A stretch of DNA of 64,000 bases from a candidate division NPL-UPA2 bacterium Unc8 (GCA_003574845.1 NDHY01000005.1:3342-67341), one strand, 5' to 3'. Shown: positions 15,586 to 45,812, counted from the first letter of the stretch. Translations and numbers: made by a program. Notes: generated by a model not told the origin, from the letters alone.

Positions 15586-15895
15586 AACAGGCACAAAGTA
15601 ACAAAGGCACAGAGGCACAGAGGCACAGAGAATTAAGTCGTAAGTCGTAAGTAGAGAGTAGAGAGAGATGAAATTGGAAATTGGTAATTGGAAATTGGAA
15701 ATTAGTGTTCTGGTGCACTATTTTGAAAAGGGTTCAAGGGTTCAAGTGTAAAGGCACAAACTTTTAACTTGCACTTTTGCCTTTTAACTTTTAACTTTTA
15801 AATTAGTTCTTAAATTGGTAATTAGTGATTGGTGGCCAGTTACCACCAGTTACTATTTACTAATCACCATTTACCAATTTATTTGAATTTACCCG
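15586..15895 (+). repeat. large composite heptamer region between purB and mrdA
   Basis: GGCACAG, AAGTCGT, AGAGAGT, GGAAATT, GGTTCAA, ACTTTTA, GTGATTG units in succession; final part quasi-palindromic. Confidence 0.9.
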
Positions 15896-15915
15896 AACAG
15901 AGTGAGGGTTATCTT

Positions 15916-17703
15916 GTGTTGTCACTAAATTCTGAGAAAGAACCGACGGTGTTTGAGCATCGGATAAGAACAGTAATGTGGGTAGTGATTATTCTTTTTC
16001 TTGTTCTCGCCGGTCGTCTCTGGCAGAAGCAAATCATTCAGGGAGAGCACTTTGCCGGGCTTGCTGAAAGGAATAGCATCCGCCTTGTTAATCTTCGGGC
16101 ACCACGAGGCACTATATATGATCGAGACGGCGCTATATTGGCACAAAATGCTCCACTGTTTAGAATTGTTGCCATTCCACACGAGATGACAGATAAAAGG
16201 AGAGCAGCTAAAAGAGTAAGTGAGCTTTTAGGGTTTGACGAAGAGAATGTTTTGAAAAAAATAGAGGCTAGGCATTTAAATCCATTCTCTCCTGTCTTGC
16301 TTGCTACAGGGGTTAGCCTGCAAGAAATCACAGTCACTAAAGAACATCAGAGAGAGCTTCCTGGTATCTTTGTTGAGACTGTTCCCCGCCGTGACTACCC
16401 TCATGGAGATCTGGCTTTTCATATTATTGGATATGTCGGGAAAATCCCGGATGTAAGATGGATAGAGTTGAGGGAGATAGGGTATCGCATTGACCATGTA
16501 ATTGGGAAAGATGGCATTGAAGGTCTTTTTGATACTTTACTGCAGGGAGAAGATGGCGCTCGTGAGATTCTTGTGAATATAATGGGAGAGAGGATAGAAA
16601 TATTGTCTGAACGAGAGACGATTCGCGGCAATGATATCACTCTAACGATTGATTTAAGGCTCCAGGAAATTGTTGAACGCAACCTAAAAGGAAAGAGAGG
16701 AGCAATTGTAGCTATAGACCCCCGTAATGGCGATATTCTCGCCCTGGCGAGTTCTCCTGCAATTGATCCCAATATTTTTACTTTACCTCTTGAAGAGAGA
16801 AAATTCGCCGCTATCAAAGGCGACCCCGCTCGTCCTTTCTTTAATCGCGCAATCTCCGGGGTTTATCCGCCAGGGTCTACATTTAAAATTATTATGGCAA
16901 TGGCAGGACTTGAGAAAGGGGTGATTGATGATGAAACTTATTTCCATTGCCATGGAGTGATAAGACGCGGTAGAGCTTCTTTCTTCTGCTGGAACAAAGA
17001 TGGACATGGAAGAGTTAATGTTACCCGTGCATTAGCCGCTTCCTGCAACATATTTTTCTATGAAGTGGCTGCGCTTCTCGGTATAGAAAATATAGAATAT
17101 TTTGCCAGTCGCTCTGGCCTTGGAGACCTCACTGGAATTAATCTTCCACGGGAAGCGAGGGGGAACATTCCCGCTCAGGAACAAAGAGAAAGATGGTTTT
17201 TGGGGGATATACTTCACCTGGGTATTGGGCAGGGAGAGATTCTGGTAACTCCACTTCAGATGACAGCTCTCACAGCCGCTGTAGCAAACAGAGGAATACT
17301 TTATCGCCCTCGTCTTGTCCGTGAGATAACCTCTCCTCAAGGGAAAGTAATTGAATCTTTTCCTGTGGAGCCATGGAAGCAGCTTCCTGCCTCAGAAGGC
17401 ACACTTAATTTAGTGCGTTACGGTATGTGGAAGACAGTCAATGAGATAGGAGGAACAGGAAGAAGAGCGGCACTTACCGAGATAGAGGTTGCAGGTAAGA
17501 CCGGAACAGCTCAGATAATTGGGGCCGAGTTTGGAGGGGAGGAAGGAATTCCATTTGAACTTCGTCCCCATGCCTGGTTTGTTGGCTTTGCCCCATTTGA
17601 AAATCCTGAGATTGCCCTGACCATTATAATTGAACATGGAGAATCAGGCGGTAGAGTAGCAGCACCAATTGCCCGGAAAATATTTAAGGAATTCCTTCAA
17701 TAA
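15916..17703 (+). CDS. mrdA: penicillin-binding protein 2
   Basis: APRGTIYDRDG, PPGSTFKI (SxxK), SCN (SxN), AGKTGTAQ (KTG). Start placed at GTG 15916 (SD GAGG); the 15829 start translates the repeat array. Confidence 0.95.
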   Translation: MLSLNSEKEPTVFEHRIRTVMWVVIILFLVLAGRLWQKQIIQGEHFAGLAERNSIRLVNLRAPRGTIYDRDGAILAQNAPLFRIVAIPHEMTDKRRAAKRVSELLGFDEENVLKKIEARHLNPFSPVLLATGVSLQEITVTKEHQRELPGIFVETVPRRDYPHGDLAFHIIGYVGKIPDVRWIELREIGYRIDHVIGKDGIEGLFDTLLQGEDGAREILVNIMGERIEILSERETIRGNDITLTIDLRLQEIVERNLKGKRGAIVAIDPRNGDILALASSPAIDPNIFTLPLEERKFAAIKGDPARPFFNRAISGVYPPGSTFKIIMAMAGLEKGVIDDETYFHCHGVIRRGRASFFCWNKDGHGRVNVTRALAASCNIFFYEVAALLGIENIEYFASRSGLGDLTGINLPREARGNIPAQEQRERWFLGDILHLGIGQGEILVTPLQMTALTAAVANRGILYRPRLVREITSPQGKVIESFPVEPWKQLPASEGTLNLVRYGMWKTVNEIGGTGRRAALTEIEVAGKTGTAQIIGAEFGGEEGIPFELRPHAWFVGFAPFENPEIALTIIIEHGESGGRVAAPIARKIFKEFLQ

Positions 17704-18797
17704 TGATTGACAGGCGACTGCTCAGAAATTTTAACTATCCTCTTATTTTGTTAGTGTTTATTACCTGTCTCATTGGTCTGGCGATGATTTACAGCGCTTC
17801 TCATCATCTCCAGGATATTCACGGATTTTATGCCAGACAACTTATATGGATGGGGATTAGCCTGGCAGGAATAGCGTTCATTCTCAGCATTAATTATCAG
17901 ACAATCTTAAGGCATAGCTATGGACTTCACTTTATAGTTGTTCTTCTCCTTCTAGCGGTTGTTCTGTTCGGACCAGTTGTGCGCGGTGCCCAGAGATGGA
18001 TTTTTATTGGGCCACTGTCATTTGCCCCCGCAGAGTTTGCCAAAATAACTGTCGTCCTGAGCCTGGCGTATTATTTAGGTGGTGCTGAGGAAGTAAAGAT
18101 GCTAAAAAAAATACTCACTTCACTTCTTATTGTCTTTATTCCCTTCGTTTTGATCTTCATCCAGCCGGATCTGGGAACAGCTCTTACCTTGCTTCCTACC
18201 CTCTTTGTTATGCTATACCTAACAGGTATTAAAAAGCGACACCTCCTCGCTATCGCCCTCTTTGGCATCCTAATTGTTGCTCCATTTGTTTACCATTTCT
18301 TTCTTGAGGAGTATCAACGGGTAAGAATCCAGGTTCTTTTGAATCCGGGGTTAGATCCCCTTGGAGCGTCTTTCAGTCTCAATCAGTCAAGAATTGCCAT
18401 CGGCTCCGGGGGAATTTTAGGAAGAGGATGGTTGGGTGGCTCTCAGACCCAGCTCCATTTCCTTCCAGCACAATACACTGATTTTATCTTCTCTGTTGTT
18501 GGAGAAGAGTGGGGCTTTGCAGGAGCAGTGGGTCTTCTTTTACTTTACATAGGAATATTTAAGAGTGGCGTACGGATAGCTTGCGAGGCAAAGGACCGCG
18601 CTTCATCATTCCTTGCAGCCGGGCTCACTACTATGCTCGCATCGCATGTCCTGATTAATATTGGAATGACGTTGGGAATAGTGCCTGTAGTTGGATTGCC
18701 GCTGCCTTTTCTGAGTTATGGCGGTTCTTCCCTGCTGATGGCGATGCTCTCTATCGGGCTTCTTCTGAACATTCATATGAGAAGATTCATTATTTAA
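17703..18797 (+). CDS. rodA: SEDS peptidoglycan polymerase RodA
   Basis: GAQRWI, PAEFAKI, QPDLGT, QSRIAIGSGG, TDFIFSVVGEEWG, PLPFLSYGGSS. Confidence 0.95.
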   Translation: MIDRRLLRNFNYPLILLVFITCLIGLAMIYSASHHLQDIHGFYARQLIWMGISLAGIAFILSINYQTILRHSYGLHFIVVLLLLAVVLFGPVVRGAQRWIFIGPLSFAPAEFAKITVVLSLAYYLGGAEEVKMLKKILTSLLIVFIPFVLIFIQPDLGTALTLLPTLFVMLYLTGIKKRHLLAIALFGILIVAPFVYHFFLEEYQRVRIQVLLNPGLDPLGASFSLNQSRIAIGSGGILGRGWLGGSQTQLHFLPAQYTDFIFSVVGEEWGFAGAVGLLLLYIGIFKSGVRIACEAKDRASSFLAAGLTTMLASHVLINIGMTLGIVPVVGLPLPFLSYGGSSLLMAMLSIGLLLNIHMRRFII

Positions 18798-18807
18798 TTG
18801 AGTAACA

Positions 18808-18860
18808 AAAGGCACAAAGGCACAAAGTACTAACAGCCTAAACTAATAAGCTATTAGAGA
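18808..18860 (+). repeat. short heptamer array after rodA
   Basis: aaaggcacaaaggcacaaagt. Confidence 0.7.
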
Positions 18861-18881
18861 ATTTAGAATGCGGGTGATGAA

Positions 18882-19370
18882 ATGAAAGTAAGAATAGGAG
18901 TGCTTTCGGATACGCATATACCTGTTGCAGCAAGAGAAATTCCCAGAAAAGTCCTTGAACTTTTAGGTGGCGTTGATTTGATTGCTCATGCTGGAGATAT
19001 CCTTCAACTTACAGTGTTGGAGGAATTGCAGGAATTGGCTGAGGTAAGAGCAGTATATGGTAATATGGACACGCACAGCGTTCGAGAAAAGTTGCCGGAA
19101 ATAGATGCCTTTGAGGTGCAGGGATTTAAGATAGGCATTATTCATGGGTCAGGTCCTCCTCCTTCTGGAATAGAATCGCGTATAAGAGAAAAGTTTGATG
19201 AGGTTGATGTAATTATATATGGACATTCTCACTCGCCGAAAAATGAGATAATTAATGATGTATTGTTTTTTAACCCTGGCTCTCCCACATGTAGAGTTTT
19301 TGCCCCGTGTAATTCTTTTGGCATTCTTACAATTGACAAAGAAATCAGAGGAAAAATAATAAAGATTTAA
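18882..19370 (+). CDS. YfcE/MJ0936-family metallophosphoesterase
   Basis: LSDTH, HAGDI, VYGNMD, IIHG, YGHSHSP, NPGSPT. Confidence 0.92.
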   Translation: MKVRIGVLSDTHIPVAAREIPRKVLELLGGVDLIAHAGDILQLTVLEELQELAEVRAVYGNMDTHSVREKLPEIDAFEVQGFKIGIIHGSGPPPSGIESRIREKFDEVDVIIYGHSHSPKNEIINDVLFFNPGSPTCRVFAPCNSFGILTIDKEIRGKIIKI

Positions 19371-19391
19371 AAGCGAGGGTGTGCTATATTT

Positions 19392-20978
19392 TCAACTTAA
19401 TTCTTGAGATACCGATTTTCTTCTAATCTGTTTGAGTTTACGGAAGAAATGCCCCTTTTTTAAATTAGAATGCCAGGCGTGCTCAACAATCCATCCTCCG
19501 AAACGCATCACGCTATTTCTCCAGGGCCGGTACCATACTCTCCATCCCGATTTAATATTATGCAGGGAGAAAAGCAGGGATGGAAAGTAAAAGATATTAA
19601 GAGCTACTGAAAACATATGCCTGAACCGATAGAAGCCACTCATAACTTTTCTGACAGAAGATAGCATTTCCTCGGGGGTCATTGGCTCATCAGGCTCAAA
19701 TAAAGGGAAGTATCCATCGTAATGTTCCCAGCCAATATGTTCGATGGGGTAAATTCTACCCTGAGCTTTAAGCCGTTCTCTCAATTCCGTTCCGGGTAAT
19801 GGAATTGGGAGTAAAACCTGCAGAGTATCAATTCTTGCTTTCTTTATAAATCTTCTGAGATGTCTCGCTCGTTCCATAGCGCTCATCTTAAAATTAATGT
19901 TCTCCCTCATTGGATAGCCAAAGATAAACATACCATGCACGAAAAATCCAAACTTATGAAATATTTTAATTAGGGACAGCATATCTCTTGACTTCAGGTT
20001 TTTATTCATAGCTTTCAGTTCTTCATCAATAACCGATTCAAGCCCAATAGCTACTTTGTCAATTCCCGCATCCCGCATGGCAGTGAGTAGCTCGCTGTCC
20101 TTTGCGCTATCTAATCTCATCTGGACCATTATGCTTAGTTTGCAATGAATTCTTTTTTGGTACTCCTTTAGTATTTTACAAAATCTTATTGTTTCTTTTC
20201 TCCGTTGCCCAAAAAAATCATCAACAACGAAAAAGTGCCTGGCATCTCTTGCCTCTACAAGAGAACTGATGTGTTCAAGTAGTCGTTCGGGAGGAGCGCA
20301 TCTTATCTTGCCCTTGACGGTGCAGAATTCGCAATTCATGCCGCATCCCCTTATCCTCCCCACGGGATAAACTTTAATTCTGGCATATCGCACCAGGGAA
20401 AAATCCGGCAAGGGGAGCAGGTCAAAATCTGTTATTGGTTCTCTGGAGGAAGTATAAGCCACCTCATTATTTTTTAAATATGAAATTCCCCTAACATTAT
20501 CTATGCTTTGCTTATTTTCCATGACTGATAAGAGTTCTTTAATGGTTTCTTCGCCTTCACCAATTACGATGTAATCAATACCTGAAGATAACGCCTCAAC
20601 CATAGTATCTTCGGTAAAGTGCTGACCCCCAGCAATAGTTGTTACTTTACAATACTTATTATAAAAACGCGCAATTTCATAAAGTCTCGGTATGGTACTT
20701 GTTAGCCCGCCATAAAATCCAATGACATCGGCTGGTCTTAATGCTTGTAACTGCTTATGGTCAGGCAGCCCGAATTTATCTCTGGGCCCATATTTACTGT
20801 AATTGTTCTCATCGATAATCTCAACATCCCATTTTTCCATCTTGTTAACGACAGTAGCTACACAGACCGGCCCAAGGGCAGTCATTTTCTTAAGAGAGCG
20901 AGAATAGATAGTAAGCGATGAAGAAGCCGGGATTACGACTCTCAGTTTGTATCTTTTCTTAGATGTATCAATTTTCAT
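19392..20978 (-). CDS. B12-binding domain radical SAM protein
   Basis: IAGGQHFT, DYIVIGEGEETI, RGCGMNCEFC (CxxxCxxC), VDDFF, IGLES, GMFIFG; ATG 20978 has SD GGAGG (ORF track starts at GTG 20990). Confidence 0.88.
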   Translation of the reverse strand: MKIDTSKKRYKLRVVIPASSSLTIYSRSLKKMTALGPVCVATVVNKMEKWDVEIIDENNYSKYGPRDKFGLPDHKQLQALRPADVIGFYGGLTSTIPRLYEIARFYNKYCKVTTIAGGQHFTEDTMVEALSSGIDYIVIGEGEETIKELLSVMENKQSIDNVRGISYLKNNEVAYTSSREPITDFDLLPLPDFSLVRYARIKVYPVGRIRGCGMNCEFCTVKGKIRCAPPERLLEHISSLVEARDARHFFVVDDFFGQRRKETIRFCKILKEYQKRIHCKLSIMVQMRLDSAKDSELLTAMRDAGIDKVAIGLESVIDEELKAMNKNLKSRDMLSLIKIFHKFGFFVHGMFIFGYPMRENINFKMSAMERARHLRRFIKKARIDTLQVLLPIPLPGTELRERLKAQGRIYPIEHIGWEHYDGYFPLFEPDEPMTPEEMLSSVRKVMSGFYRFRHMFSVALNIFYFPSLLFSLHNIKSGWRVWYRPWRNSVMRFGGWIVEHAWHSNLKKGHFFRKLKQIRRKSVSQELS

Positions 20979-21000
20979 TTTATCCTCCACCTATCATTTA

Positions 21001-21969
21001 CTACCCACTAATCTTATCTTTGAATAAAGAGCCTATTCTTATGGTATGCCCTGAAAGATACTCTACTGCTGACATTTTTCTTCTGTTTTCTGGTTGTAAT
21101 TCCTTGATCAGAATCGCACCTTCGGCGACATTAACCATAATTCCATTTTTCAATCCTATAATCTCACCTAACTGGTGGTTTGTCAATGAGGCTTTATTAT
21201 TTGAAATTATCTCTGTCTTCCATATTTTTAACATCTTCCTATGAAGGTGAGTGTAAGCGCCAATTCTGGGATTGAGCCCTCGCACTAAATCGTGTATCTC
21301 ATGCGCTTTAGATGACCAGCGAATTAATCCATCTGCCTTCCGGATGGAACGAGCGGTGCTTACTTCTCCTTGCTGCAGCGTATACTTTGCATTTCCTGCC
21401 TCAATCTGCTTGAGGCTTTCCTGAAGCATCCTCGCCGCAAGGGAAGATAGCCTTTGTCCCAGGTTTTGCGTTGTCTCATCAGGAGAGATATCAATTTCCT
21501 CCTGAAGGATTATATCTCCAGCATCTATTTCTTCGTTTACACGGATGATTGTTACCCCTGTTTTTTTCTCGCCCCTAATTATTGCCCATTCAATTGGCGC
21601 TGCTCCTCTATATTTTGGAAGTAGAGAAGGGTGAGCGGCAATACACTCTAACCTGGGAATATGCAGTAGTTTTACCGGTAATTTCTTCCCATAAGCAACG
21701 ACAACAATGACATCTATGTTCAGGGTGGAGAGCTTCTTTAGGAAATTACCATCTATTTTTTCTGGTTGATACAATGAAATTTTTTTATGGAGAGCAACTT
21801 CTTTGACTGCTGATAGTGTGAACTTTCTCCCTCTCCCTGCCGGCTTATCGGGCTGAGTGGCAATTCCTACTACTTTTTCATGCTGAAGAAGAGAGATAAG
21901 GCTCGGCAGTGAAAAAATAGGAGTCCCCATAAAAAAAATTCTCAAGCGCTTCTTTTTTCTTGTAATCAT
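21001..21969 (-). CDS. fmt: methionyl-tRNA formyltransferase
   Basis: FMGTPIFS, TQPDKPAGRG, VVVAYG, HPSLLPKYRGAAPI, DAGDI. Confidence 0.96.
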   Translation of the reverse strand: MITRKKKRLRIFFMGTPIFSLPSLISLLQHEKVVGIATQPDKPAGRGRKFTLSAVKEVALHKKISLYQPEKIDGNFLKKLSTLNIDVIVVVAYGKKLPVKLLHIPRLECIAAHPSLLPKYRGAAPIEWAIIRGEKKTGVTIIRVNEEIDAGDIILQEEIDISPDETTQNLGQRLSSLAARMLQESLKQIEAGNAKYTLQQGEVSTARSIRKADGLIRWSSKAHEIHDLVRGLNPRIGAYTHLHRKMLKIWKTEIISNNKASLTNHQLGEIIGLKNGIMVNVAEGAILIKELQPENRRKMSAVEYLSGHTIRIGSLFKDKISG

Positions 21970-22784
21970 TTAACTATAATCCCTGTATAGCCTACGACAG
22001 TGCTGGAGTCTCCACTGGTTTCATCTGAGGTTGCATATTGAATGAGTTCCGCTTCCGTTGCCCCAAGCGCTTTAGCGGCAGAAAGCATAGTTACTACCGG
22101 GCCGTAACCGCACATAGAAACTTCAAGGTCTTTCACTGTCTTGAGGAGCCTCTCTCCATCCAGACTAAGAATGGCATCTATTACCCTGCTGTCCTTTCGC
22201 CGCGCCACCTCCCTTGGCTCGTAATGGCTCAAATCGGAGCTGGCAATAATGAGCACTTTTTCTCCTCCTTTGACCGCTGATGCGATGGCACATCCTATCT
22301 CATAATAGGTAGCAAAGTCTCCATGAGCAAGAATAATCGGAACAAAACAAAATTTCTTAGTATAATATTGTAGGAATGGAAGCTGCACTTCAATTGAGTG
22401 TTCATACATATGAGCCTTATCATCTGCTTTGAGATTCTTGCTGTTGGCAAGAATCTTCTCTGCTAACTCGGCATCAATTGCCACCTCCCCTGAGGGAGTT
22501 TTCCAGATTCCATCAGACATCAATGAAAAGGGATATCCTTTACCGGTGTGATTTGGCCCAATGATTACAAACAGGCGAGGTAAAGTAATCCGCGCATAGA
22601 CTGCACCTGCTACTTTTCCCGAATAGATATAGCCAGCATGTGGCACTACTGCTCCTGCGACTTCCTCCCTTGCTACTTCCGCCTCAGTAAATGCCCTGAT
22701 TTGTCCTTCCAGAGATTCCATACTTGCCGGGTAGAATTGCCCTGCAAAAGCAGCTTCTCTTTTCATACCCCTACTCATACCCAA
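21966..22784 (-). CDS. Memo-family protein (AmmeMemoRadiSam protein B-like)
   Basis: AFAGQFYP, VPHAGYIYSG, IGPNHTG, EHSIEVQLPFLQ, SSDLSHY, SMCGYGP, VVGY. Confidence 0.92.
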   Translation of the reverse strand: MGMSRGMKREAAFAGQFYPASMESLEGQIRAFTEAEVAREEVAGAVVPHAGYIYSGKVAGAVYARITLPRLFVIIGPNHTGKGYPFSLMSDGIWKTPSGEVAIDAELAEKILANSKNLKADDKAHMYEHSIEVQLPFLQYYTKKFCFVPIILAHGDFATYYEIGCAIASAVKGGEKVLIIASSDLSHYEPREVARRKDSRVIDAILSLDGERLLKTVKDLEVSMCGYGPVVTMLSAAKALGATEAELIQYATSDETSGDSSTVVGYTGIIVK

Positions 22785-22831
22785 TTACCTATCACATTTT
22801 CCTTCCTATTGACAAGAAAAACATAAAACTT

Positions 22832-22860: not shown

Positions 22861-22878
22861 AAGAACGATGAGACTTAA

Positions 22879-29533: not shown

Positions 29534-29670
29534 AGACACAAAGGCACAGAGGCACAGAGGCACAAAGAAATAAGTGGTAAGTGGTAAGTGGTAAGTAGGG
29601 AGAGATGAAATTGGAAATTGGGAAGAGATGAAATTGGAAATTAGTAACTGGTGCTCTGGTGCTCTATTTT
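29534..29670 (+). repeat. composite heptamer element between argF and thyX
   Basis: (GGCACAG)n-(TAAGTGG)n-GGAGAGATGAAATTGGAAATTGG-CTGGTGCT. Confidence 0.9.
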
Positions 29671-29683
29671 TTAAAGAAACGAT

Positions 29684-33810: not shown

Positions 33811-33842
33811 AATTAAAGAGGTCAGACCTCAATATTCATTAA

Positions 33843-33997
33843 AAAGGCACAGAGTGGCAAAGGCACAAAGGCACAAAGAAATTCAAAAATCAAAAGTCAA
33901 AATTACAATGCAAAGCTTGTGCTGAATTTATTTCAGTATGCAAAATTCAGTGATTAGTGATTGGTGACCATTGACTGTTGACTATTGACTATTGACC
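33843..33997 (+). repeat. composite heptamer region after argJ
   Basis: GGCACAA, CAAAAAT/CAAAAGT, AGTGATT, TTGACTA units; hairpin at 33920-33938. Confidence 0.85.
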
Positions 33998-34004: not shown

Positions 34005-34033
34005 CTGACAGGATTTTGGGTGTGTGGTACACT
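34005..34033 (+). promoter_or_regulatory. possible promoter at left end of island
   Basis: CTGACA-17 nt-TACACT, preceded by TG. Confidence 0.4.
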
Positions 34034-34059: not shown

Positions 34060-34266
34060 ATGATGAAATTAGTGAATAAAAAGGGTTTTACACTGATTGG
34101 AGAAACTATTGTAGATGATAATATCTACCTCTTAGGTAACAGTCTGTGGGTATTCAAACTAGCGAAGGATGTTGTCTTGATAACCTTTGGCAAAGATTTA
34201 GATACTGCAAAACATTTCGTTAATAAGAATTTCCCAGACAAAACAAGGAACCACTATTATGTATAA
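34060..34266 (+). CDS. small hypothetical protein with prepilin-like leader (KKGFTLI), possibly a remnant
   Basis: MMKLVNKKGFTLIGE...; lacks Glu+5 and the hydrophobic helix. Confidence 0.35.
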   Translation: MMKLVNKKGFTLIGETIVDDNIYLLGNSLWVFKLAKDVVLITFGKDLDTAKHFVNKNFPDKTRNHYYV

Positions 34267-34684
34267 TCCGCCAAAACCAGAAGATTATACCCACCCGGAA
34301 GAAAAGAATGCTTTAATTAAATCCATTATTATCATGGTTATAATTCTTTTTATCTTGTCCGCATTTTCTTTTGGGATCGCATTAATTATTGTCGCTATAG
34401 GTTTAGGATATATTAGGATGCTCCAAGCCCGGCTATTAGGTGATTCAGCATTGGTCACGCGGCATAACTATGCAAAAATTGACAATCTTATCAATTTGGC
34501 TTGTCAGCGGTTAGGTGAAGAGAGACCTAAAGGCCATGTCGTTCAAGACCCCTATTTAAACGCTTTCGCACTCGGTTTTTCTTATCCTTTTTCCACGGTG
34601 ATACATTCTGCAACTATTCAGGCTATGGATAATGAAGAACTGTCATTTATCATGGGTAAAGGGGACAGACACCTTTTCTATTGA
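34259..34684 (+). pseudogene. M48-family (HtpX-like) metallopeptidase, truncated
   Basis: TM helices, then VVQDPYLNAFALG...VIHSATIQAMDNEELSFIMG; breaks where HExxH is expected, at the RAYT left repeat (34657). Confidence 0.75.
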
Positions 34685-34709
34685 CATATAGCTGCCACCA
34701 CGATATAAT
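34681..34709 (+). promoter_or_regulatory. consensus sigma70 promoter of RAYT, leaderless mRNA predicted
   Basis: TTGACA-17 nt-TATAAT; ATG follows 6 nt after the -10 with no SD. Confidence 0.75.
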
Positions 34710-34715
34710 ATCTTC

Positions 34716-35381
34716 ATGCCTAGACAAGCACGTATAGTCATACCTGAATTAGCACATCATATAACCCAGCGTGGTAATTACCGCCAGAATATCTTCGATA
34801 ATGAAGGTAATTATAGACAATACTCTAAATGGATAAATGAATATGCTAAAGAAAACAGCATGGATATATTAGCTTATTGTTTAATGAGTAACCACATACA
34901 TTTTATAGTAATTCCTAAAAAAGAAGAAGACTTGAGCAAAGTATTCAGAACCGCCCATATGCGTTATTCACACTATCTGAATCGGCAAAGATCAGCTAAA
35001 GGACATCTTTGGCAAGGAAGGTTTTATTCCTGCATATTGGGTGATAGCCACTTATATAGAGCGATAAGATATACTGAAAATAATCCTGTACGTGTAAAAA
35101 AAGTAAAGAATGCCTCAGAATATGAATGGTCAAGCGCTAAAGATCACACAGGATGCAGGAATAACAAACCTTTAATCAAGTTAGGCAAATATAAAACAAT
35201 AGAAGAAAAAGGATGGAAAGATTACTTAAGAGAAGATGATCCTGAGATGACCGAAGATATTAGATTAAAAACAAATAGAGGATTAGTTGTAGGTACAGAT
35301 AAATTCATAAAGAAACTGGAAAGAACATTAAATCGTTCCTTGAAGTGTTTAAAGCAGGGAAGGCCGAGGAAAGATAGATAA
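34716..35381 (+). CDS. REP-associated tyrosine transposase (Y1 HUH, RAYT-like)
   Basis: MPRQAR...HHITQRGNYRQNIF, AYCLMSNHIHF (HUH), GHLWQGRFYS, RYTENNPVR, YEWSS, C-terminal GRPRK. Confidence 0.9.
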   Translation: MPRQARIVIPELAHHITQRGNYRQNIFDNEGNYRQYSKWINEYAKENSMDILAYCLMSNHIHFIVIPKKEEDLSKVFRTAHMRYSHYLNRQRSAKGHLWQGRFYSCILGDSHLYRAIRYTENNPVRVKKVKNASEYEWSSAKDHTGCRNNKPLIKLGKYKTIEEKGWKDYLREDDPEMTEDIRLKTNRGLVVGTDKFIKKLERTLNRSLKCLKQGRPRKDR

Positions 35382-35549
35382 AAGGTGTCTGTCCCCTTTA
35401 TGACGACGTTTCTCCTCCTGCTGGGTGGTGGCTACCTCCCCGTGCTCGCGAGGCTTGGTTGGCTTGGCAGTTTTTTCGATGGGTTTTTCGATGGATTTTT
35501 CGACGCTAGACTGGATACCAGAGACAAATAACTATCACAGGAGGAAAAG

Positions 35550-37217: not shown

Positions 37218-37421
37218 TAGAATACTTTAAAAACAATCAGCCCACTTCTTTAGCAGGAACGGTTCTATTTTTCTTGACACGCCACAGAAAAACCAGCGAT
37301 AGACACTATTTTCTTAACCCCTTGCCGGGAAGAAAACAAAGTCAGACCTCAACAAAATGAGTGAGTAGTGAATAGAAAGTTTGGCTGATAGCCGCTACGC
37401 TCATGGAAAAGGAAAACCTTC

Positions 37422-38757: not shown

Positions 38758-38774
38758 TTTATTCCCCTAATTAT

Positions 38775-38850
38775 TGTAACAGTTCACAGGGGTCGGGGAT
38801 CAGTAATCAGCTATTCTCCCTGTTCACTGTCCACTGATCCCTGTAAACTG
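38775..38850 (+). repeat. heptamer array rpsD-rpoA spacer
   Basis: ggggtc ggggatc; cactgtc cactgat ccctgta. Confidence 0.65.
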
Positions 38851-38860
38851 GTTTGCTTTT

Positions 38861-39478
38861 CTATCTTGAGCAAAATCCGATGACAAGTTGTTCATCAACA
38901 GGAACAGATATCTCCTCCTGAGAAGGAATTTTAGAAACCTTTGCAGTTACTTTTGCTTTATTCAGTTTAAGCCATAAAGGAATCTCTCTATTCTCTGTTA
39001 TTTTCATAACTTTTTTTATTACTTTCCGGCTTTTTTCTCTTACATCAATGATGTCTCCTGCTTCAACCAGATATGAAGAGATATCCACGCGATGATTGTT
39101 AACTCGAAAATGTCCATGCCCGATGAGCTGCCTTGCTTCCCTTCTGGAGACAGCAAGCCCAAGATGAAAAATCACATTATCAAGTCGCCGCTCAAGAAAT
39201 TGCAACAGACTCTCCCAGGTAACACCGCGCCGTGCTTCCGCCATCCTAAAATAAGAACGGAACTGTTTATCAAGAATACCATACATCTGGCGCAGTTTCT
39301 GCTTCTCACGCAATTGTCGTCCATAATCAGAGATTCTTGGAGGTCTTCCTCTCTGCTCACCAGGAGGAGAGTTTCGTTTTTCAAGAGTGCACTTGGTTAC
39401 ACACCTATTCCCTTTAAGAAAAAGTTTTTCTTTCTCACGGCGACAAAGCCGACAGACAGGACCCAGATAACGAGCCAT
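38861..39478 (-). CDS. rpsD: 30S ribosomal protein S4 (Zn-type)
   Basis: MARYLGPVCRLCRRE, QLREKQK, ERRLDNV. Confidence 0.97.
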   Translation of the reverse strand: MARYLGPVCRLCRREKEKLFLKGNRCVTKCTLEKRNSPPGEQRGRPPRISDYGRQLREKQKLRQMYGILDKQFRSYFRMAEARRGVTWESLLQFLERRLDNVIFHLGLAVSRREARQLIGHGHFRVNNHRVDISSYLVEAGDIIDVREKSRKVIKKVMKITENREIPLWLKLNKAKVTAKVSKIPSQEEISVPVDEQLVIGFCSR

Positions 39479-39480
39479 TT

Positions 39481-39846
39481 CTAAACGCGCCTCCTCTTAC
39501 GAGGCCTACAGCCATTGTGAGGAATAGAGGTAACATCTCTAATCAATGTTATTTCTAATTCTGCTGACCTCAACGATTTTATTGCCGCCTCCCGACCTGA
39601 GCCAGGCCCCTTTATATAAACCTCGATATTCTTCATTCCATGCTCAATGGCTTTACGAGCACAAGCTCCAGCCGCCTCTCGTGCCGCAAATGGAGTGCTC
39701 TTTCGTGTCCCTTTAAAGCCAGAGCTTCCCGCACTTGCCCATGCCAGAGTATTGCCACTAAGATCAGTTATCGTAATGATGGTATTATTAAATGTCGCCT
39801 GAATATGTGCTATTCCCCTGGTAATCTCTCTCTCAGATTTTTTCAT
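39481..39846 (-). CDS. rpsK: 30S ribosomal protein S11
   Basis: [28 protein letters not shown]. Confidence 0.97.
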
Positions 39847-40241
39847 TTCCTGCCTTCCATCTTTTTAACAGATTCTTTTCTTCTCACCCCTACGGTCCGA
39901 CGAGGGCCCTTGCAAGTGCGAGCGTTAGTACTCGTCCTCTGTCCCCTGACGGGCAGACCACGGCGATGGCGCATCCCCCGATAGGTACCTGTACTAATCA
40001 GTCTCTTTATATTTGAAGAGACCTCACGACGCAAATTGCCCTCAATGGTATATTCTCTCTGGATGACTTCTGCTATTCTACTTATCTCCTCCCCGGTGAG
40101 GTCTTTCACCTTCATATCGGCATTTACATTTGCCTCATCAAGGACCTTTACTGCCGTTGCTTGTCCAATGCCATAGATATATGTAAGCCCAATCCGTATT
40201 TTCTTCTCTCTGGGAAGATCTATACCTACTACTCTTGCCAC
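39843..40241 (-). CDS. rpsM: 30S ribosomal protein S13
   Basis: [31 protein letters not shown]. Confidence 0.97.
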
Positions 40242-40249
40242 TTTTCCCT

Positions 40250-40325
40250 CCGCTACTCTCTACCAAACAGCTATCAGCTATCAGCTCTTGTGCCTTTGTG
40301 CCTCCCTCTTCTACTCTCTACTATT
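40250..40325 (-). repeat. heptamer array rpmJ-rpsM spacer
   Basis: On +: ctactct, cagctat x2-3, tgtgcct x2. Confidence 0.8.
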
Positions 40326-40326
40326 C

Positions 40327-40440
40327 TTATCCTTGTCTTTGTTTATGTCGGGAGTTTGTGCAAATAACTCTCAAGACACCATGACGACGAATAATCCGGC
40401 ACTTCTCACAAATTTTTTTTACTGATGCTCTAACTTTCAT
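40327..40440 (-). CDS. rpmJ: 50S ribosomal protein L36 (Zn-ribbon type)
   Basis: Below ORF-track cutoff; hand translation [37 protein letters not shown]. Confidence 0.96.
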
Positions 40441-40655
40441 TTACATCTATAGACAATTCTTCCACGCGAGAGATCATAAGGAGACAGCTCCATTTTTACT
40501 CTATCTCCGGGCAAAATTTTTATATAGTGCTTTCTCATCTTGCCACAGATATGTGCCAGAACTCTGTGGCCATTCTCTATTTCTACCCGAAACATCGCAT
40601 TCGGCAATGACTCTTTTACCACTCCTTCAACCTCTATTGCCTTTTCCTTTACTAT
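40437..40655 (-). CDS. infA: translation initiation factor IF-1 (start uncertain; AUA at 40655 gives 72 aa)
   Basis: [46 protein letters not shown]. Confidence 0.95.
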
Positions 40656-40713
40656 GTTACCTTCTGTATTCTTAACTCTCACTCTCTTTCTAAGTTTGCT
40701 TTTCGTATACACC

Positions 40714-41469
40714 CTAACTACTTTCCCTCTTTGTCAATATTTCTGCTCCATTCCTGGTAATAAGAATTGTGTGTTCAAAATGGCAGGAAGGTTTTCCATC
40801 TCTGGTAACAATTGTCCAGTTGTCCGGCTTTATTGCCACCTCCCAACTTCCAGCATTTACCATTGGCTCAATTGCTAACACCATGCCATACTTCAGTCTT
40901 GGGCCACGATGCGGTAAGCCAAAGTTCGGTACCTGTGGCGACTCATGTAGTTGCGACCCAATTCCATGGCCCATAAGGTCTCTGACCACGGAAAACCCGT
41001 TTTTTTCAGACTCATTCTGAATGGCGTAAGAGATGTCAGAAAGATAGCCGCCTGCAACTGCCTTTCCAATTCCAGCATAAAGAGCTTTTTTTGTCGTCTC
41101 AAGAAGCCTTTCTACCTCCATCTCAATGGAGCCAACCGGACAAGTAACTGCTATATCTCCATAGAAGCCTGCCTTTTTTACTCCTACATCTATACCAACA
41201 ATATCTCCTTCTTTCAATCTTCTTGATCCGGGAATTCCATGAACGACCTCATCATTAACTGACAAACAAATGCTCCCGGGAAACCCCTTGTAACCCTTAA
41301 ATGCGGATGTCGCTCCCCTCTTTTCAATAGAAATTATCGCCAACTTTTCAAGTTCTCCTGTAGAGATACCTACTTGAACAGCCGCCTCTAAAGTATGACT
41401 GACCTCAGCAGCAATACAACTTGCCGCTCTGATTAAGCCTATCTCCTGTCTGGACTTGATAGGAATCAT
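40714..41469 (-). CDS. map: methionine aminopeptidase type I
   Basis: [38 protein letters not shown]. Confidence 0.97.
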
Positions 41470-42106
41470 CTATCACCTTCAGAATATTTTTCAGTACCTT
41501 CTCTGGCTCCATATTGGAATTAACCTCTTTTAAAAGATTTCTTTCCTTATAAAATTCAAACAATGACTTAACTTCTTCCTCATACCGCAAAAGCCTCTCC
41601 TTCACTACACTTTCCTGGTCATCCTCTCTGATAACAATTTGACTGCCGCAACCATCGCATATTCCCTCTTTCCTGGGTGGCATGTTCTCTACATGATAGA
41701 GCGCCTGGCAGGAAGGACAGACTCGCCTCCCCGAGAGACGGCTGATAAGGACTTCTCGCGGAGCATCCAGATTAATTGCAATACCAGGGGCAACCCCCGA
41801 TGCTGCTTCCATATTGGAGAGTGCCTTTGCCTGATTGAGCGTACGGGGAAATCCATCAAGGATAAAACCCCTCTCACAGTCAGTAGCAGATAGCCGCTCC
41901 TTAATCAGAGAGATCATTATTTCATTGGATAGGAGCCCTCCACTCTCCACGCAAGCCTTTGCATCTCTACCCAATGGCGTCTCCTCATTAATCGCCCGGC
42001 GCAATATATCTCCCGTAGAAATATGAGGCAGGGAGAGCTTCTCAGAAAGAAGCTTTGCGATTACTCCCTTTCCTGCCCCCGGCGGGCCAAGAAGAATTAA
42101 TCTCAC
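41405..42106 (-). CDS. adk: adenylate kinase
   Basis: GPPGAGKG, HISTGD, GFILDGFPRT, Zn-lid CPSC...CDGC; 65-nt overlap with map. Confidence 0.96.
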   Translation of the reverse strand: MRLILLGPPGAGKGVIAKLLSEKLSLPHISTGDILRRAINEETPLGRDAKACVESGGLLSNEIMISLIKERLSATDCERGFILDGFPRTLNQAKALSNMEAASGVAPGIAINLDAPREVLISRLSGRRVCPSCQALYHVENMPPRKEGICDGCGSQIVIREDDQESVVKERLLRYEEEVKSLFEFYKERNLLKEVNSNMEPEKVLKNILKVIDDSYQVQTGDRLNQSGKLYCC

Positions 42107-43401
42107 CTCCTTCCCCTTACTCTTCCCTTTTTCATAAACCCATCATAGTGCCGCATAAGTAGCTGCGATTCTACACGCTTTACTGTATCCAGAGTTACTC
42201 CTACAATGATAATCATTCCTGCCCCACCGGCAAAGCTGGCAACAAGATAAGGAACTACCAACTGGCCGCTAACTATCATTGGCATTATTGCAATGAAGGC
42301 AAGAAAGACTGCTCCTACAAGAGTAATCCGATTCATCACATAGTAGAAGTAGTCCGAGGTTGTCTTGCCTGGTCTAACCCCCGGAATAAAGCTCCCGTGC
42401 TTTTTCATATTGTCTGCCAACTCCACTGGATTAAATATTATTGCTGTATAGAAATAACAGAAAAAGATAATTAAAGCGGGGAATAATATCCAGTAGGCTA
42501 TTGTTCCCGGGTTGAGACTTTCTCCAATAATCTTTACTATCTCTACGTCTGAGAACTGAGCAATTGTCGCCGGAAACATAATGAGCATTGAAGCAAAGAT
42601 AATTGGAATCATCCCTGCCAGATTAAGTCGCAGGGGAATGTAGCTTGTCTGTGAGGAGTAGACTCGACGACCAACTACTCTCTTCGCATGTTGAAGAGGG
42701 ATACGGCGCTGCGCCTGGACAAGCAGGACTATCCCCGCTGCTCCAGCTACAACAAAAGCAGGAAGCATCACTGCTAAAAACGGCCGTCCTGTCTCAATGA
42801 TCACAAGATGTCCACGAATAACGGTCATCGGAATAGCTGAGATAATACCTACCGCAATTATAAGTGATATTCCCTCTCCAACGCCCCGTTCCGTTATCTG
42901 CTCTCCCAGCCACATAAGAAAGATTGTCCCCGCAGTCAGAGTAACTATTGCTACCAACCTAAACCCCCAGCCAGGGTCAAGCACAAACCCTCCTCTTTCC
43001 AGGAAGGTTGCCATCATTAATGCCTGAAATATGCAAACTGGGACCGTTCCCAGACGCGTGTACTGGTTTATTTTTCTTCTTCCTGCTTCCCCTTCCTTGG
43101 CAAGCTTCTCAAGAAATGGTATAACTGCAGTCAAAAGCTGCATTATAATAGAGACTGTGATAAATGGCATTATACCCAGACCAAAGACTGCCCCACCACT
43201 CATTGCCCCGCCGGCAAAAAGATCTGCCAGACCAAAAATTGTTCCTTCTGCCTCGCGAAAGAACTCTCCCAGAGCAACAATGTCAATCCCCGGGGTTGGA
43301 ATATGAACTCCGATGCGAAATACAACAAGAATAGCTGCAGTGAAAATTAATCTTTTTCTCAGGTCCGGAATATGCCAGATATTCCTGAATACATTAAACA
43401 T
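42103..43401 (-). CDS. secY: preprotein translocase SecY
   Basis: [46 protein letters not shown]. Confidence 0.97.
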
Positions 43402-43828
43402 ATGAGGCGGTCCCTTTTTTCTTTTCTATTTCTTCCTTTGCTCTTCGGGAAAAGGAGTGAGCAGATACATTCAGCGCTTTTTTTAATTCCCCTTTCCCAA
43501 GGATTTTTACCAAACCTTTTTTGACCACTCCTTCCTCTTTTAGCTTTAGTGGAGTAATTTCCGTCCCGGCAGCAAATCTATTAAGTTCCCCTAAATTGAC
43601 AATGGCGTAAATTTTTCTCCTGATGCTTCTAAATCCTCGCTTGGGAACCCTCCTTATAAGCGGCGTCTGCCCCCCTTCAAATCCAGGCCTGGTACTTCCT
43701 CCCGAGCGTGCTTTGTTTCCCTTGTGCCCACGCGTTGCTGTCTTGCCATGACCAGAGCCTGGACCACGTCCAACCCGTTTACGATTCTTGAGTGAACCTG
43801 CTGTATATTTAATCTTGTGGAGCTTCAT
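43394..43828 (-). CDS. rplO: 50S ribosomal protein L15
   Basis: [22 protein letters not shown]. Confidence 0.97.
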
Positions 43829-44306
43829 TTTTTCTTCTCGCCGTCATTTCCAAAATTACTGTCAACTCCTTCAGCGCCTTCATCGTTGCCTTAACCATAT
43901 TAGAAGAATTATTTGAGCCAAGAGACTTTGCTGATATATCTTTTATTCCTGCCAATTCCAATAGTGCTTTTATTGGACTACCTGCAATCACCCCTGTTCC
44001 TTCAGCAGCAGGTTTCAGGAGAACCCTGCTTGCTCCATACTTGCCGATTATCCTGTAATGAATTGTCCGTCCTTCTCTCAGGAAAACTGAGATAAAGTTC
44101 TTCTTCGCCCTTTCTGTTCCCTTTCTCACAGCACTGGAAACCTCTTTTGCCTTCCCTAACCCATAACCAACATGGCCCTTGCCATCTCCGACAACAACAA
44201 GTGCACTGAAGCTAAAGCGCTTCCCTCCTTTAACAACTTTAGCTACACGATTTATCTTAATAACCTTTTCTGGCAGGAATTCTAACTCACCTACATCTGT
44301 TCTCAA
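43809..44306 (-). CDS. rpsE: 30S ribosomal protein S5
   Basis: [34 protein letters not shown]. Confidence 0.97.
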
Positions 44307-44644
44307 AATTCAATCCCTCCCTTTCTGGCACCCTCAGCCAGGGCACGCACTCGACCATGATAGAGATAACCTCTTCGGTCAAAGACAATGTTTTTTATTC
44401 CGAGTTCCTTTGCCGCCTCCGCCAGGAGAGCCCCAACGGCTTTAGCCGCTTCTATATTTCCTGTGGAGCCAGAGTTATGCGATCGGAATGAAGCAGAGGA
44501 ACTGGAGACACCAAGCAAGGTTTTACTGTTTTCATCATCAATTAATTGACCATAGATGTGGCGCGCGCTCCGAAAGACAGCTAACCTGGGCCTGTTCTTA
44601 CTTCCCCACACTCTTCTTTTTTGACGCTTTACTCTTTTTGCCAT
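44303..44644 (-). CDS. rplR: 50S ribosomal protein L18
   Basis: [22 protein letters not shown]. Confidence 0.97.
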
Positions 44645-45198
44645 TATTTTACGATTGCCTTTGTCTTACCGGCCTTACGGCGAATCACCTCTCCTTCATA
44701 TCTAATTCCCTTACCCTTATATGGCTCTGGAGGAAGAATGGCACGTAGCCTCGCCGCCACATCGCTGAGTTTTTCTTTATTTATTCCTGTCAGCCTAATT
44801 CTGGTAATCTGCTCCTCTCTCGCCACGATGGCATCAACTCCCTCAGAAAGACTATAATGTACAGGATGAGAAAAGCCTATCCGGAGAACAATATCTCTAT
44901 CCTTCACCTCAGCCCGATAGCCAACACCATGCATCTCCAGCTTCTTCTCAAAGCCAGAAGCAACTCCCTCAATCATATTTGCTATTAGGGTACGTGTAAG
45001 ACCATGAAGTGAGCGGTGAAGACGGCTCTCTCCAAGCCGGGAGACAACCACTTCTTTATCACGAATCGCTACCTTCAAAAGGCTGGAGATATTTCTGGTT
45101 AGCTCGCCTTTTGGTCCTGCCACGCGCAACTCATTCCCTGTTATGTGCGCCGTGACGAAACCGGGAACTTCAATTGGCTTCCTGCCTATTCTAGACAT
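44644..45198 (-). CDS. rplF: 50S ribosomal protein L6
   Basis: MSRIGRKP (ATG 45198), GVGYRA, PEPYKGKGIRY. Confidence 0.97.
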   Translation of the reverse strand: MSRIGRKPIEVPGFVTAHITGNELRVAGPKGELTRNISSLLKVAIRDKEVVVSRLGESRLHRSLHGLTRTLIANMIEGVASGFEKKLEMHGVGYRAEVKDRDIVLRIGFSHPVHYSLSEGVDAIVAREEQITRIRLTGINKEKLSDVAARLRAILPPEPYKGKGIRYEGEVIRRKAGKTKAIVK

Positions 45199-45202
45199 AT
45201 CC

Positions 45203-45634
45203 TTACCATACCCGACAGAGCAACTCCCCTCCAATTCCCTTCCTGCGACACTCAAAGCCGCTCATTATCCCCTGGGATGTGGATAAAATTGGCATGCGGT
45301 GGTCTCTCCTGATCTCATTGCTGGCTACATAAATCCGCCGTCCGGGTTTACTCACCCTCTGAATTCCGCCGATCATCTCTTCTCCACGAGAACCATACCG
45401 AAGAAAAATTCTCAGAACTCTATACTTCCCTGAGACATCGCGATCATCTTTGAGTATTTCCTTTTTACTTCCCGCCATGAGTACGCGATACTCTTTGATA
45501 AAACCTTCTTCCTTAAAGATGCGGGCAATCTCAACTTTCAACTTTGAGGAAGGCATGTCAACCTCCCTCCGCTTCTCGCGGCTCGCGTTACGCACTCTCG
45601 TCAACATATCAGCAACGGGATCTGTCATTGCCAC
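45203..45634 (-). CDS. rpsH: 30S ribosomal protein S8 (with indels)
   Basis: TDPVADMLTRVRN, EEGFI, RVSKPGRRIY, STSQG, GGELLC. Confidence 0.95.
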   Translation of the reverse strand: MAMTDPVADMLTRVRNASREKRREVDMPSSKLKVEIARIFKEEGFIKEYRVLMAGSKKEILKDDRDVSGKYRVLRIFLRYGSRGEEMIGGIQRVSKPGRRIYVASNEIRRDHRMPILSTSQGIMSGFECRRKGIGGELLCRVW

Positions 45635-45649
45635 TGGTCTTCTCCCCTA

Positions 45650-45812
45650 TTTGGTAACTGGTAAATGGTCTATGGTCAATGGTCACTAATTACCAATTAC
45701 CACTTACCAATTTCCAATTTCATCTCTCCCTACTTACCACTTACCACTTACTTCTTTATGCCTTTGTGCCTTTGTGCTTTTACCACTTTGTGCCTCTGTG
45801 CCTTCTTACTTC
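45650..45812 (-). repeat. composite heptamer element rpsN-rpsH spacer
   Basis: Reverse complement has the same module order as 29534-29670; 44-nt exact match 45707-45750 vs 29578-29621. Confidence 0.9.

Follow-up and report, generated by a model that had tools for sequence, protein, structure and literature searches.

Do short tandem arrays that recur in the same order at distant spacers of one genome expand separately at each site, or are they copies of a single composite? The question is raised by a 64,000-nucleotide stretch of DNA from candidate division NPL-UPA2 bacterium Unc8 (GCA_003574845.1 NDHY01000005.1:3342-67341; this whole stretch is called the window below). In it an original prediction, made from the sequence alone, had picked out at 15.6, 29.5 and 45.7 kb a series of heptamer arrays set around a 22-nt core and ending in ATTAGT, and had taken the three loci for copies of a dispersed, non-autonomous element of 130-170 bp. 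The module order that it gave is present at all three sites, which we refer to as W1, W2 and W3, and from the comparisons described here we conclude that the copies are homologous members of one dispersed composite family, their common descent being shown by the alignments.

The composite at three loci of the window

The core, GAGAGATGAAATTGGAAATTGG, is exact, as had been claimed, at three places, the third of them inverted: 15663-15684 (+), 29600-29621 (+) and 45707-45728 (-). It has no match, at up to 3 mismatches, in 100 dinucleotide shuffles of the window, and a fourth, degenerate copy (2 mismatches) lies at 29623-29644 inside W2. The 44-nt identity reported between W2 and W3 is a real exact match, but its length, the longest for this pair, measures 45 nt (29577-29621, equal to 45707-45751 inverted). 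The first module, described as the heptamer GGCACAR, is actually an octamer, GGCACARA (GGCACAGA/GGCACAAA; period 8 in Tandem Repeats Finder, TRF). The shared ATTAGT is there, but beyond it the three copies diverge into two kinds of tail, W1 and W2 finishing in CTGGTGCWCTATTTT (class i) and W3 in (T/A)GACCAT and TTACCAR arrays (class ii).

W1 (15590-15724, +; class i) lies in the purB/mrdA spacer and consists of (GGCACARA)4-5 (module A, 15590-15629), (TAAGTCG)2 TAAGTAG (module B, 15634-15654), (AGTAGAG)2 (module C, 15650-15663), the core as GAGAGATGAAATTGG (15663-15684), (AAATTGG/TAATTGG)4 (module E, 15670-15705) and the tail ATTAGTGTTCTGGTGCACTATTTT (15701-15724). W2 (29535-29672, +; class i) fills the argF/thyX spacer, starting at the stop codon and leaving 11 nt ahead of the thyX ATG, with (GGCACARA)3-4 (A, 29535-29566), (TAAGTGG)3 TAAGTAG (B, 29571-29598), the core, its degenerate duplicate and the tail ATTAGTAA(CTGGTGCT)2CTATTTTTT (29640-29672). 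W3 (45651-45802, -; class ii), in the rpsN/rpsH spacer, reads on the minus strand (GGCACARA)~6 (A, 45755-45802), (TAAGTGG)2 TAAGTAG (B, 45730-45750), core (45707-45728), TAAGTGG (TAATTGG) TAATTAG (E, 45686-45706) and a tail of modules H and I (45651-45685) made of three (T/A)GACCAT units followed by TTACCAG TTACCAA. A minimal fragment, GTAAGTAGAGAGTAGAGAGAG at 50567-50587 (-), consists of the B/C/D junction and makes up the entire rplD/rplW spacer; it is a 21-nt exact inverted match to 15647-15667.

W1, W2 and W3 all fall between genes, each reading in the sense direction of both neighbors. The window is core housekeeping DNA, and the copies sit between essential genes: purB and mrdA-rodA for W1 (purB identified by the Pfam families Lyase_1/ADSL_C, mrdA by PBP_dimer and Transpeptidase), argD-argF and thyX for W2, and rpsN and rpsH, in the spc ribosomal-protein cluster, for W3. 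Independent same-species assemblies, from three NCBI series of metagenome-assembled genomes (MAGs) and several Logan runs, are 99.9% identical to the window and have the same spacers, the W2 spacer being identical in three other assemblies and the W3 spacer in four; two further assemblies carry a variant rpsN/rpsH array, (AAACAGAG)n behind the first GGCACAGAG.

One order and one register in all copies

Further copies were found mostly by searching with a 20-mer of the core. In metagenome contigs (contigs compared are given L numbers) it hit seven BBPD/BBPF/BBPG contigs, which amount to six distinct loci and seven copies, L019 duplicating L021 and L022 carrying two copies. The metagenome project behind these assemblies also yielded contigs of this species, and the BBPG01 contig L037 is 99.9% identical to the window. 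The possibility, raised with the original prediction, that only the three window copies exist thus falls, there being at least seven more. Viral contigs gave 0 matches to the 20-mer, hence no sign of phage origin, and a species-representative genome collection gave only three isolated ones in unrelated taxa, two of them in ordinary sequence. The third, L002:4396-4440 in a Bacteroidales MAG (JAIOYV010000093.1), reads GAGAGATG(AAATTGG)2(AAATTAG)2 amid heptamer arrays of its own (AGTTGGC, ACCCAGT) and has 27 nt exactly in common with the L016 copy; as evidence of transfer we set it aside, judging it to be probably a common array unit plus a 7-nt coincidence, with cross-phylum sharing or mis-binning as the alternatives.

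Copies at unrelated loci align closely: W2 and L025 share 82 nt at 93.9% identity, W2 and W1 108 nt at 88%, and W2 and W3 their 45 nt at 100%. Stretches of 80-108 nt at 88-94% identity, together with the exact 45 nt, bear out the proposal that the arrays are not independent slippage events. In an alignment of nine copies the conservation runs from the GGCACARA array through the core to the AAATTGG array; beyond that, the class i tail, ...AAATTAGT..(CTGGTGCT)n CTATTTT, is found in W1, W2, L016 and L021, and the class ii tail, ...TAATTAGTGACCAT((T/A)GACCAT)n TTACCAG TTACCAA, in W3, L024 and L025.

Each copy is a colinear subset of one master order, A-K-J-B-C-D-E-F-G/H-I. Its first modules are A (GGCACARA)n, K (GGGYTCA)n, J (GCTGATA)n, B (TAAGTNG)n and C (AGTAGAG)n, followed by D GAGAGATG, E (AAATTGG)n and F ATTAGTG, and then by either G, (CTGGTGCT)n CTATTTT, in class i or H/I, ((T/A)GACCAT)n (TTACCAR)n, in class ii. 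The 17 stacks contain 134 ordered module pairs, of which 126 obey this order. The whole heptamer part keeps one 7-nt register in every copy: counted modulo 7 from the start of the core, TAAGT units fall at 6, AGTAGAG and GCTGATA at 1, AAATTGG-type units at 0, GACCAT at 2 and TTACCA at 1, and GGCACA units stand at -57, -49 and -41 in W1, W2 and L025 alike.

The discrete element of 130-170 bp does not survive this comparison, as the copies measure anything between 21 nt (50567-50587) and about 250 nt (L016), fall into two tail classes and, where the original prediction had looked to defining ends, show no constant 5' or 3' end in the nine-copy alignment. Nor are there terminal inverted repeats (TIRs): W2 is without any inverted pair, and W1 and W3 have only internal complementary arrays. 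The variable unit counts that had been proposed are seen both between copies and between strains.

A wider system of stacked arrays

The composite belongs to a larger system that the original prediction had not recognized: it is one subfamily among stacked 7- and 8-nt arrays spread through the genome and the clade. Arrays of period 7 or 8 dominate the TRF output, occur in most of the longer spacers of the window (for example at 3520, 6378, 9451, 14149, 14222, 18808, 33843-33996, 40268-40327, 50569, 51235 and 56093), and account for 22% of intergenic bases as against 0.4% of bases in open reading frames (ORFs). The GGCACARA module by itself is also found at 9350, 9440, 15752, 18808, 33843 and 40288; at 18808-18827 (+) it is an isolated GGCACAAA octamer array 11 nt past the rodA stop. 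Directly after W1, stacked arrays at 15725-15885 (+), outside the common composite and yet in the same unit vocabulary, comprise (AAGGGTTC)2, one GGCACAAA, (AACTTTT)n and the palindrome AATTGGTAATTAGTGATTGGTGG / CCACCAGTTACTATTTACTAATCACCATTTACCAATT. A related stack after argJ (33843-33996, +) has (GGCACARA)3, (AAATTCA/AAAATCA)n, (AGTGATT)n and (TGACTAT/TGACCAT)n, ordered as in the composite with different units, and another in the rpmJ/rpsM spacer (40268-40327, -) reads, in the sense direction, AGTAGAG, (GGCACAAR)2, (GCTGATA)2, its A-J junction recurring in L016 and L020.

Several side observations concern the same system. A second dispersed composite is marked by a 33-nt exact direct repeat at 6382-6414, on the antisense strand of the L20 gene, and 14229-14261, in the purB 5' leader; it is built of a 21-nt higher-order unit (TTCTGGC TTCTGAC TCCTGAA), and the composite is also present in L020 and L021. 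Arrays enter the 3' ends of reading frames at 6370-6450 (-), L016:7905-7991 and L025:1960-2003: the L20 ORF (6370-6780) has a tail of ~25 aa, from (CAGAAGC)n, past its Pfam L20 domain, and two ORFs, in L016 and L025, terminate within GGCACARA or GGGYTCA arrays. A promoter-like motif, TTGACG/CTGACA-GGATTTTGRGGGTGT-GTA, is common to 14123-14150 and 34005-34031, upstream of purB and of an ORF at 34024 respectively; a (TGTTAGG)n array starts right behind the purB motif, so that arrays are found in 5' leaders too. The motif GTCAGACCTCAA(C/T)A..ATGAGTG stands beside arrays in three spacers (33821-33832, 37341-37352 and L022:7461), and in the window alone is borderline, with 2 matches against 0.37 expected and 2 reached in 3 of 100 shuffles.

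Gain of whole composites and slippage within them

Filled sites were compared with empty ones, as the original prediction had proposed. In the relatives L011 and L013, whose ribosomal genes have about 80-86% DNA identity to those of the window, the rpsN/rpsH spacer measures 26 and 13 nt, respectively, vs 184 nt here; in L038, which stems from the L011 sample, the argF/thyX spacer (150 nt here) has a length of 0 nt, the argF TAA abutting the thyX ATG. The W2 and W3 sites are therefore empty in relatives. The gradual in situ expansion of orthologous spacers that the original prediction had named as the contrary case is not seen, and spacers of 0-26 nt show instead gain of the whole composite. 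No direct repeat indicative of target-site duplication was found around W2 or W3 on comparison with the empty sites in L038, L011 and L013, where the ancestral spacers are too short and diverged to place junctions to the base. The composite is therefore not a classical miniature inverted-repeat transposable element (MITE), even though filled and empty sites exist.

The relatives have stacks of their own in spacers that hold hardly any here: 117 vs 10 nt between L6 and L18, 197 vs 33 between tuf and S10, 133 vs 5 between S10 and L3, 184 vs 54 between L16 and L29, and 193 vs 84 between S4 and rpoA. Their units differ in part, and a closer relative, L040, has GGCACAAA, CTGGTGC and GGTTCAA units in common with the window. 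L013 (about 82% DNA identity) has a composite of its own, ACGCATTAAATATTTGCACAGCAC-(AGACATC)n...(AAGTCTG)n...TGCAAATATTTATTTCG, at three ribosomal spacers (L013:96-250, 4906-5065 and 12429-12568), with unique inverted termini (ACGCATTAAATATTTGCACA / TGTGCAAATATTTATTTCG) around the complementary arrays (AGACATC)n and (AAGTCTG)n; it looks more MITE-like than the window family. The unit vocabulary is thus older than the species, and the occupancy of individual spacers turns over quickly.

Between strains the picture is one of slippage. In about 64 kb of alignment between the window and contigs of the same species, all indels were whole units inside arrays (+7, -7, +7 and +42 nt), vs about 35 point differences: +7 nt (GAAATTG) at 29630, within W2, in L030; -7 nt (TGTTAGG) at 14149 in L034; +7 nt (AACTTTT) in the 15725-15885 arrays of both L033 and L034; and +42 nt, two of the 21-nt higher-order units, at 14222-14261 in L033. 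Length changes in whole units only indicate replication slippage, and such slippage was seen only between strains of this species, with the composite already in place. Several short-read contigs break off within the arrays. In L033:2797-3719 (GCA_018725355.1), compared with window positions 15584-15900, the purB stack is followed by an opposite-strand gene with a B12-binding domain and not by mrdA; the switch starts within the arrays, which means that the stack was the site of a rearrangement or that the contig is chimeric. Stacks break short-read assemblies and may give rise to chimeric joins in MAGs.

Orientation, transcription and folding

The stacks begin just past upstream stop codons, and most of them leave over 10 nt free ahead of the following start. 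Of the 8 co-directional spacers of the window, 7 have modules A-E on the sense strand, and the core runs with the upstream gene in all 6 copies that have a co-oriented upstream gene, the exception being L022, whose upstream gene is divergent. Where the gene strand switches, within 16 kb between W2 and W3 and within 4 kb in L016, so does the orientation; it thus follows transcription and not replication, and a replication-strand cause of the bias is ruled out. G exceeds C on the sense strand in 21 of 21 co-directional spacers of the species, the sense-strand GC skew being +0.33 for stacks and +0.22 for other spacers; the bias of the stacks conforms to and exaggerates a genome-wide strand asymmetry. 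The mreD/tRNA-Val spacer (9349-9527, both genes on the minus strand) is the only co-directional spacer with an antisense module A: it has (GTGATTG)n and CTGGTGCTC in the sense direction and GGCACAA units inverted, and its A + reverse(G) junction (GGCACAA..GAGCACCAG) is found again at L020:1010-1062.

Scans with sigma-70 promoter and intrinsic terminator consensus sequences found no site inside any of the three spacers, so that the copies are most likely co-transcribed with their operons. A sigma-54 reading of the GGCACA arrays was ruled out on spacing by reading the sequence. The Rfam scan of the window at gathering thresholds gave tRNA-Val only, and permissive scans of the three spacers gave only sub-threshold generic hairpins. 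Compared with shuffled sequences, W2 is predicted to fold worse (z = +2.4) and W3 and W1 better (z = -3.3 and -3.1), solely because complementary arrays pair: in W3 the tail folds back, TTACCAR pairing with GGTAAGT/GGTAATT arrays, and in W1 the pairing comes from a separate palindrome at 15811-15881, outside the common composite. In these models the common part appears as an unstructured, purine-rich, C-poor tract, which a class ii tail would turn into a long imperfect hairpin.

How the composites spread

The account that we favor, with chances that we put at about even, is that the composites are co-transcribed mosaics spread by array-to-array copying and altered in length by slippage. They would be mainly selfish or neutral passengers, like the short tandemly repeated repetitive (STRR) arrays of cyanobacteria and the bacterial interspersed mosaic element (BIME) mosaics of Escherichia coli, and would pass from spacer to spacer by homology- or microhomology-driven copying, that is ectopic gene conversion or template switching, and not by cut-and-paste transposition. 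Rho loads on C-rich unstructured RNA. Only the orientation giving G-rich, C-poor untranslated RNA may therefore be tolerated, the opposite strand being expected to yield a C-rich unstructured RNA of the Rho-loading type and so to cause polarity. The class ii hairpin, placed between cistrons, may incidentally affect mRNA processing or stability.

Several points weigh against this account. The copying mechanism is reached by exclusion, and the insertion of W2 exactly between stop and start is tidier than random recombination predicts. The master order was derived from the same copies that tested it, and most of these copies were located by their core 20-mer. With G exceeding C in all 21 spacers, the orientation bias may be a general asymmetry and not the result of selection on stacks. 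Finally, the L013 composite with its inverted termini, taken with a gene in the window for a protein resembling REP-associated tyrosine transposases (RAYTs; REP, repetitive extragenic palindrome), makes enzyme-mediated mobility possible.

That gene, at 34716-35381 (+), encodes a 221-aa Y1/HUH transposase (PF01797 Y1_Tnp, E = 5.5e-17) and lies in a 748-bp cassette (34654-35401, +) with perfect 21-bp inverted repeats, TAAAGGGGACAGACACCTTTT, at 34657-34677 and 35380-35400. The cassette interrupts an M48/HtpX-like ORF (34259-34684) just ahead of the expected HExxH motif, and an identical cassette with different flanks in the MAG L036 makes it look mobile. A possible but unlikely alternative is accordingly a true non-autonomous element, MITE- or REPIN-like (REPIN, REP doublet forming hairpins), that an HUH/Y1 enzyme moves in trans as single-stranded DNA, slippage acting only after insertion. 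IS200/IS605 and RAYT enzymes insert without target duplication and without classical TIRs, which the composites would fit, and filled and empty sites do occur among close relatives. Class i copies have imperfectly complementary ends, as read from the sequence ((GCACAGAG)n at the start and (GGTGCTCT)n at the end), class ii copies form predicted hairpins, the dispersed heptamer composite of L013 has inverted termini at three spacers, and at stacks assemblies break and neighbors differ. The candidate enzyme scores 73.3 bits (E = 1.8e-20) against the REP_Tyr_transpos model NF047646, and 29.8 bits against IS200, but the former is under the curated cutoff of 80. In REP/RAYT systems, moreover, the repeats flanking the transposase gene are the dispersed ones, whereas TAAAGGGGACAGACACCTTTT has no match elsewhere in the window, at up to 3 mismatches, nor in the 34 loci compared; a RAYT link to the stacks was therefore rejected, the 21-mer being unrelated to the stack vocabulary and not recurring. 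Mobilization of this kind is also hard to square with copies that have two tail classes, sizes from 21 to about 250 nt and no constant ends, and with an orientation that tracks the gene strand and not the single replication direction expected of IS200/IS605-type insertion.

We think it improbable that the composite is a functional cis-acting RNA module, whether as a multivalent platform to which an RNA-binding protein like CsrA, a cold-shock protein or S1 would bind, as has been proposed for TAACTGA repeats, or as a translation start for a mini-ORF, in which the purine run and ATG of the core (MKLEIG...) would keep ribosomes on the spacer and restore coupling downstream; this estimate covers the two versions jointly. 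The strict sense orientation and the position inside operons are what such a module would show, and (AAATTGG)n offers a GGA motif every 7 nt. Every copy has ATG AAA TTG GAA ATT in its core, from which ORFs of 7-27 codons begin; the first mini-ORF of W2 overlaps at its end, by ATGA, a second one, which crosses the start of thyX, a gene that is without a Shine-Dalgarno sequence and that in L038 abuts the argF stop. The mini-ORF stop in L021 overlaps the GGAG of the next gene, and the 20-mer matches inspected in unrelated genomes lie, judged by eye, at apparent ORF starts (MKLEI...). On the other hand, the occupied spacers differ in every genome, and relatives do without a stack at the same spacers; a gene-specific function is not conserved. 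The purine run comes to within 2 nt of the ATG and has no GGAG in W1, neither the length nor the stop position of the mini-ORFs is conserved, and those of W1 and W3 stop 66-160 nt short of the next gene. The number of units drifts from strain to strain, and since copies were located by means of the core, ascertainment accounts for part of its conservation.

A decidedly long shot is a novel kind of mobile DNA, in which phase-locked heptamer composites would copy themselves into stop-start gaps in the direction of transcription, bringing their own translation start (MKLEIG...) and so restoring coupling; the route might be an HUH/Y1 enzyme acting on the displaced strand or template switching between arrays. 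Independent in situ microsatellite expansions alike by chance or mutational bias, or an assembly artefact, can be dismissed. Slippage is demonstrably active and short-read assemblies do break within arrays, but exact 22- to 45-mers span non-repetitive junctions, registers and unit positions are the same at unrelated loci, shuffles gave zero matches, and W2 and W3 spacers agree among assemblies, whole-unit and array variants aside.

Other features of the window

The closest named relatives by protein are Nitrospirota for ribosomal protein L5 (61-64% identity) and Omnitrophota for ornithine carbamoyltransferase (53-59%). Upstream of rpsL, an ORF of 2461 aa (56510-63895, -) contains all RpoB domains (Rpb2 1-7, residues 22-1121) followed by all RpoC domains (Rpb1 1-5, residues 1137-2398) and is, by Pfam, a fused beta-beta' RNA polymerase gene; such fusions occur in Helicobacter and Wolbachia. 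The motif GAGTGAGGGTTATCTT is found directly upstream of three gene starts, at 5677-5691 (-), 10827-10842 (-) and 15900-15917 (+), with similar GAGTGAGG motifs ahead of genes in L011 and L013; the clade probably favors it as a ribosome-binding context. Its position at 15900-15917 places the true mrdA start near 15915 and not at the TTG at 15829.

Comparison with known repeat systems

Cyanobacterial genomes reportedly carry heptanucleotide STRR arrays in which small dispersed repeats (SDR) are nested. The stacks resemble STRR in being intergenic tandem heptamers of several unit types at many loci, and STRR/SDR in having short unique sequences embedded in phase within heptamer arrays; the TGACCAT unit here is one base from the reverse complement of what we take to be STRR2, TGACCAA. 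No tandem dimer of the canonical STRR units (CCCCA[A/G]T, TT[G/T]GTCA and CAACAGT) was found in the same-species set, however, and by protein the nearest named relatives belong to Nitrospirota and Omnitrophota and not to Cyanobacteria. Unlike STRR, the family here combines several units into stacks of constant order that are copied whole, as a composite which moreover includes an octamer module.

BIMEs in E. coli and BOX elements, boxA-(boxB)n-boxC, in Streptococcus pneumoniae are intergenic co-transcribed mosaics with a fixed motif order and variable internal units. The composites are like them in having many dispersed non-coding copies assembled from a small set of motifs in fixed order. BIME and BOX modules, however, are palindromic units of 30-50 nt and not 7-8 nt tandem arrays, and BIMEs are linked to RAYT transposases, whereas the repeat flanking the Y1 gene here differs from the stacks. 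REPINs (Bertels & Rainey 2011, PMC3116915) are likewise short, non-coding, dispersed and hairpin-capable, and a RAYT-like Y1 gene is present in this genome; the composite is not a pair of inverted REPs, though, its class i form is unstructured, and the Y1-flanking 21-mer is found only at the Y1 gene.

Direct repeats of TAACTGA have been described in marine Beggiatoaceae, some Cyanobacteria and Bacteroidetes, with a sporadic phylogenetic distribution and a suspected post-transcriptional role or mobile origin, the mechanism not being evident (MacGregor 2015, PMC4679880). They too are short intergenic heptamer arrays, many of them in ribosomal-protein operons near gene boundaries, but that system has one dominant unit, usually in 2-6 copies, directly upstream of start codons (PMC4679880), whereas here there are many units, in stacks of up to about 250 nt that start directly after stop codons. 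Tandems of TAACTGA are absent from the same-species set. In the long simple sequence repeats (LSSR) of 5-11 nt units, as Mrazek et al. 2007 are summarized in PMC4679880, heptanucleotide units also dominate and polymerase slippage is the proposed engine, in keeping with the whole-unit strain changes seen here; as outlined in that summary, LSSR are treated as locus-by-locus expansions, unlike the present multi-array composite with conserved junctions, which is itself dispersed.

Contingency repeats underlying phase variation were considered and rejected, as the hosts are housekeeping operons and not surface or virulence genes, though unit number does vary between strains. A literature search turned up no description of heptamer repeats in Nitrospirota or Omnitrophota. 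What sets the composite apart from the systems above is a trait that we have not seen described, namely several unit types in a fixed, phase-locked order, copied as a composite between the stop and start codons of adjacent genes in essential operons.

For decades heptamer arrays have been on record from cyanobacteria, Beggiatoaceae and some Bacteroidetes, with neither mechanism nor function assigned to them. The composites bring within reach of testing the route of copying between loci, the cause of the sense orientation, and the effect of a 150-180 nt untranslated insert on operon expression and translational coupling. For these questions the lineage is unusually clean material, with conserved junctions, one register, many copies, empty sites in close relatives, measurable slippage between strains, and insertions within essential operons such as spc.

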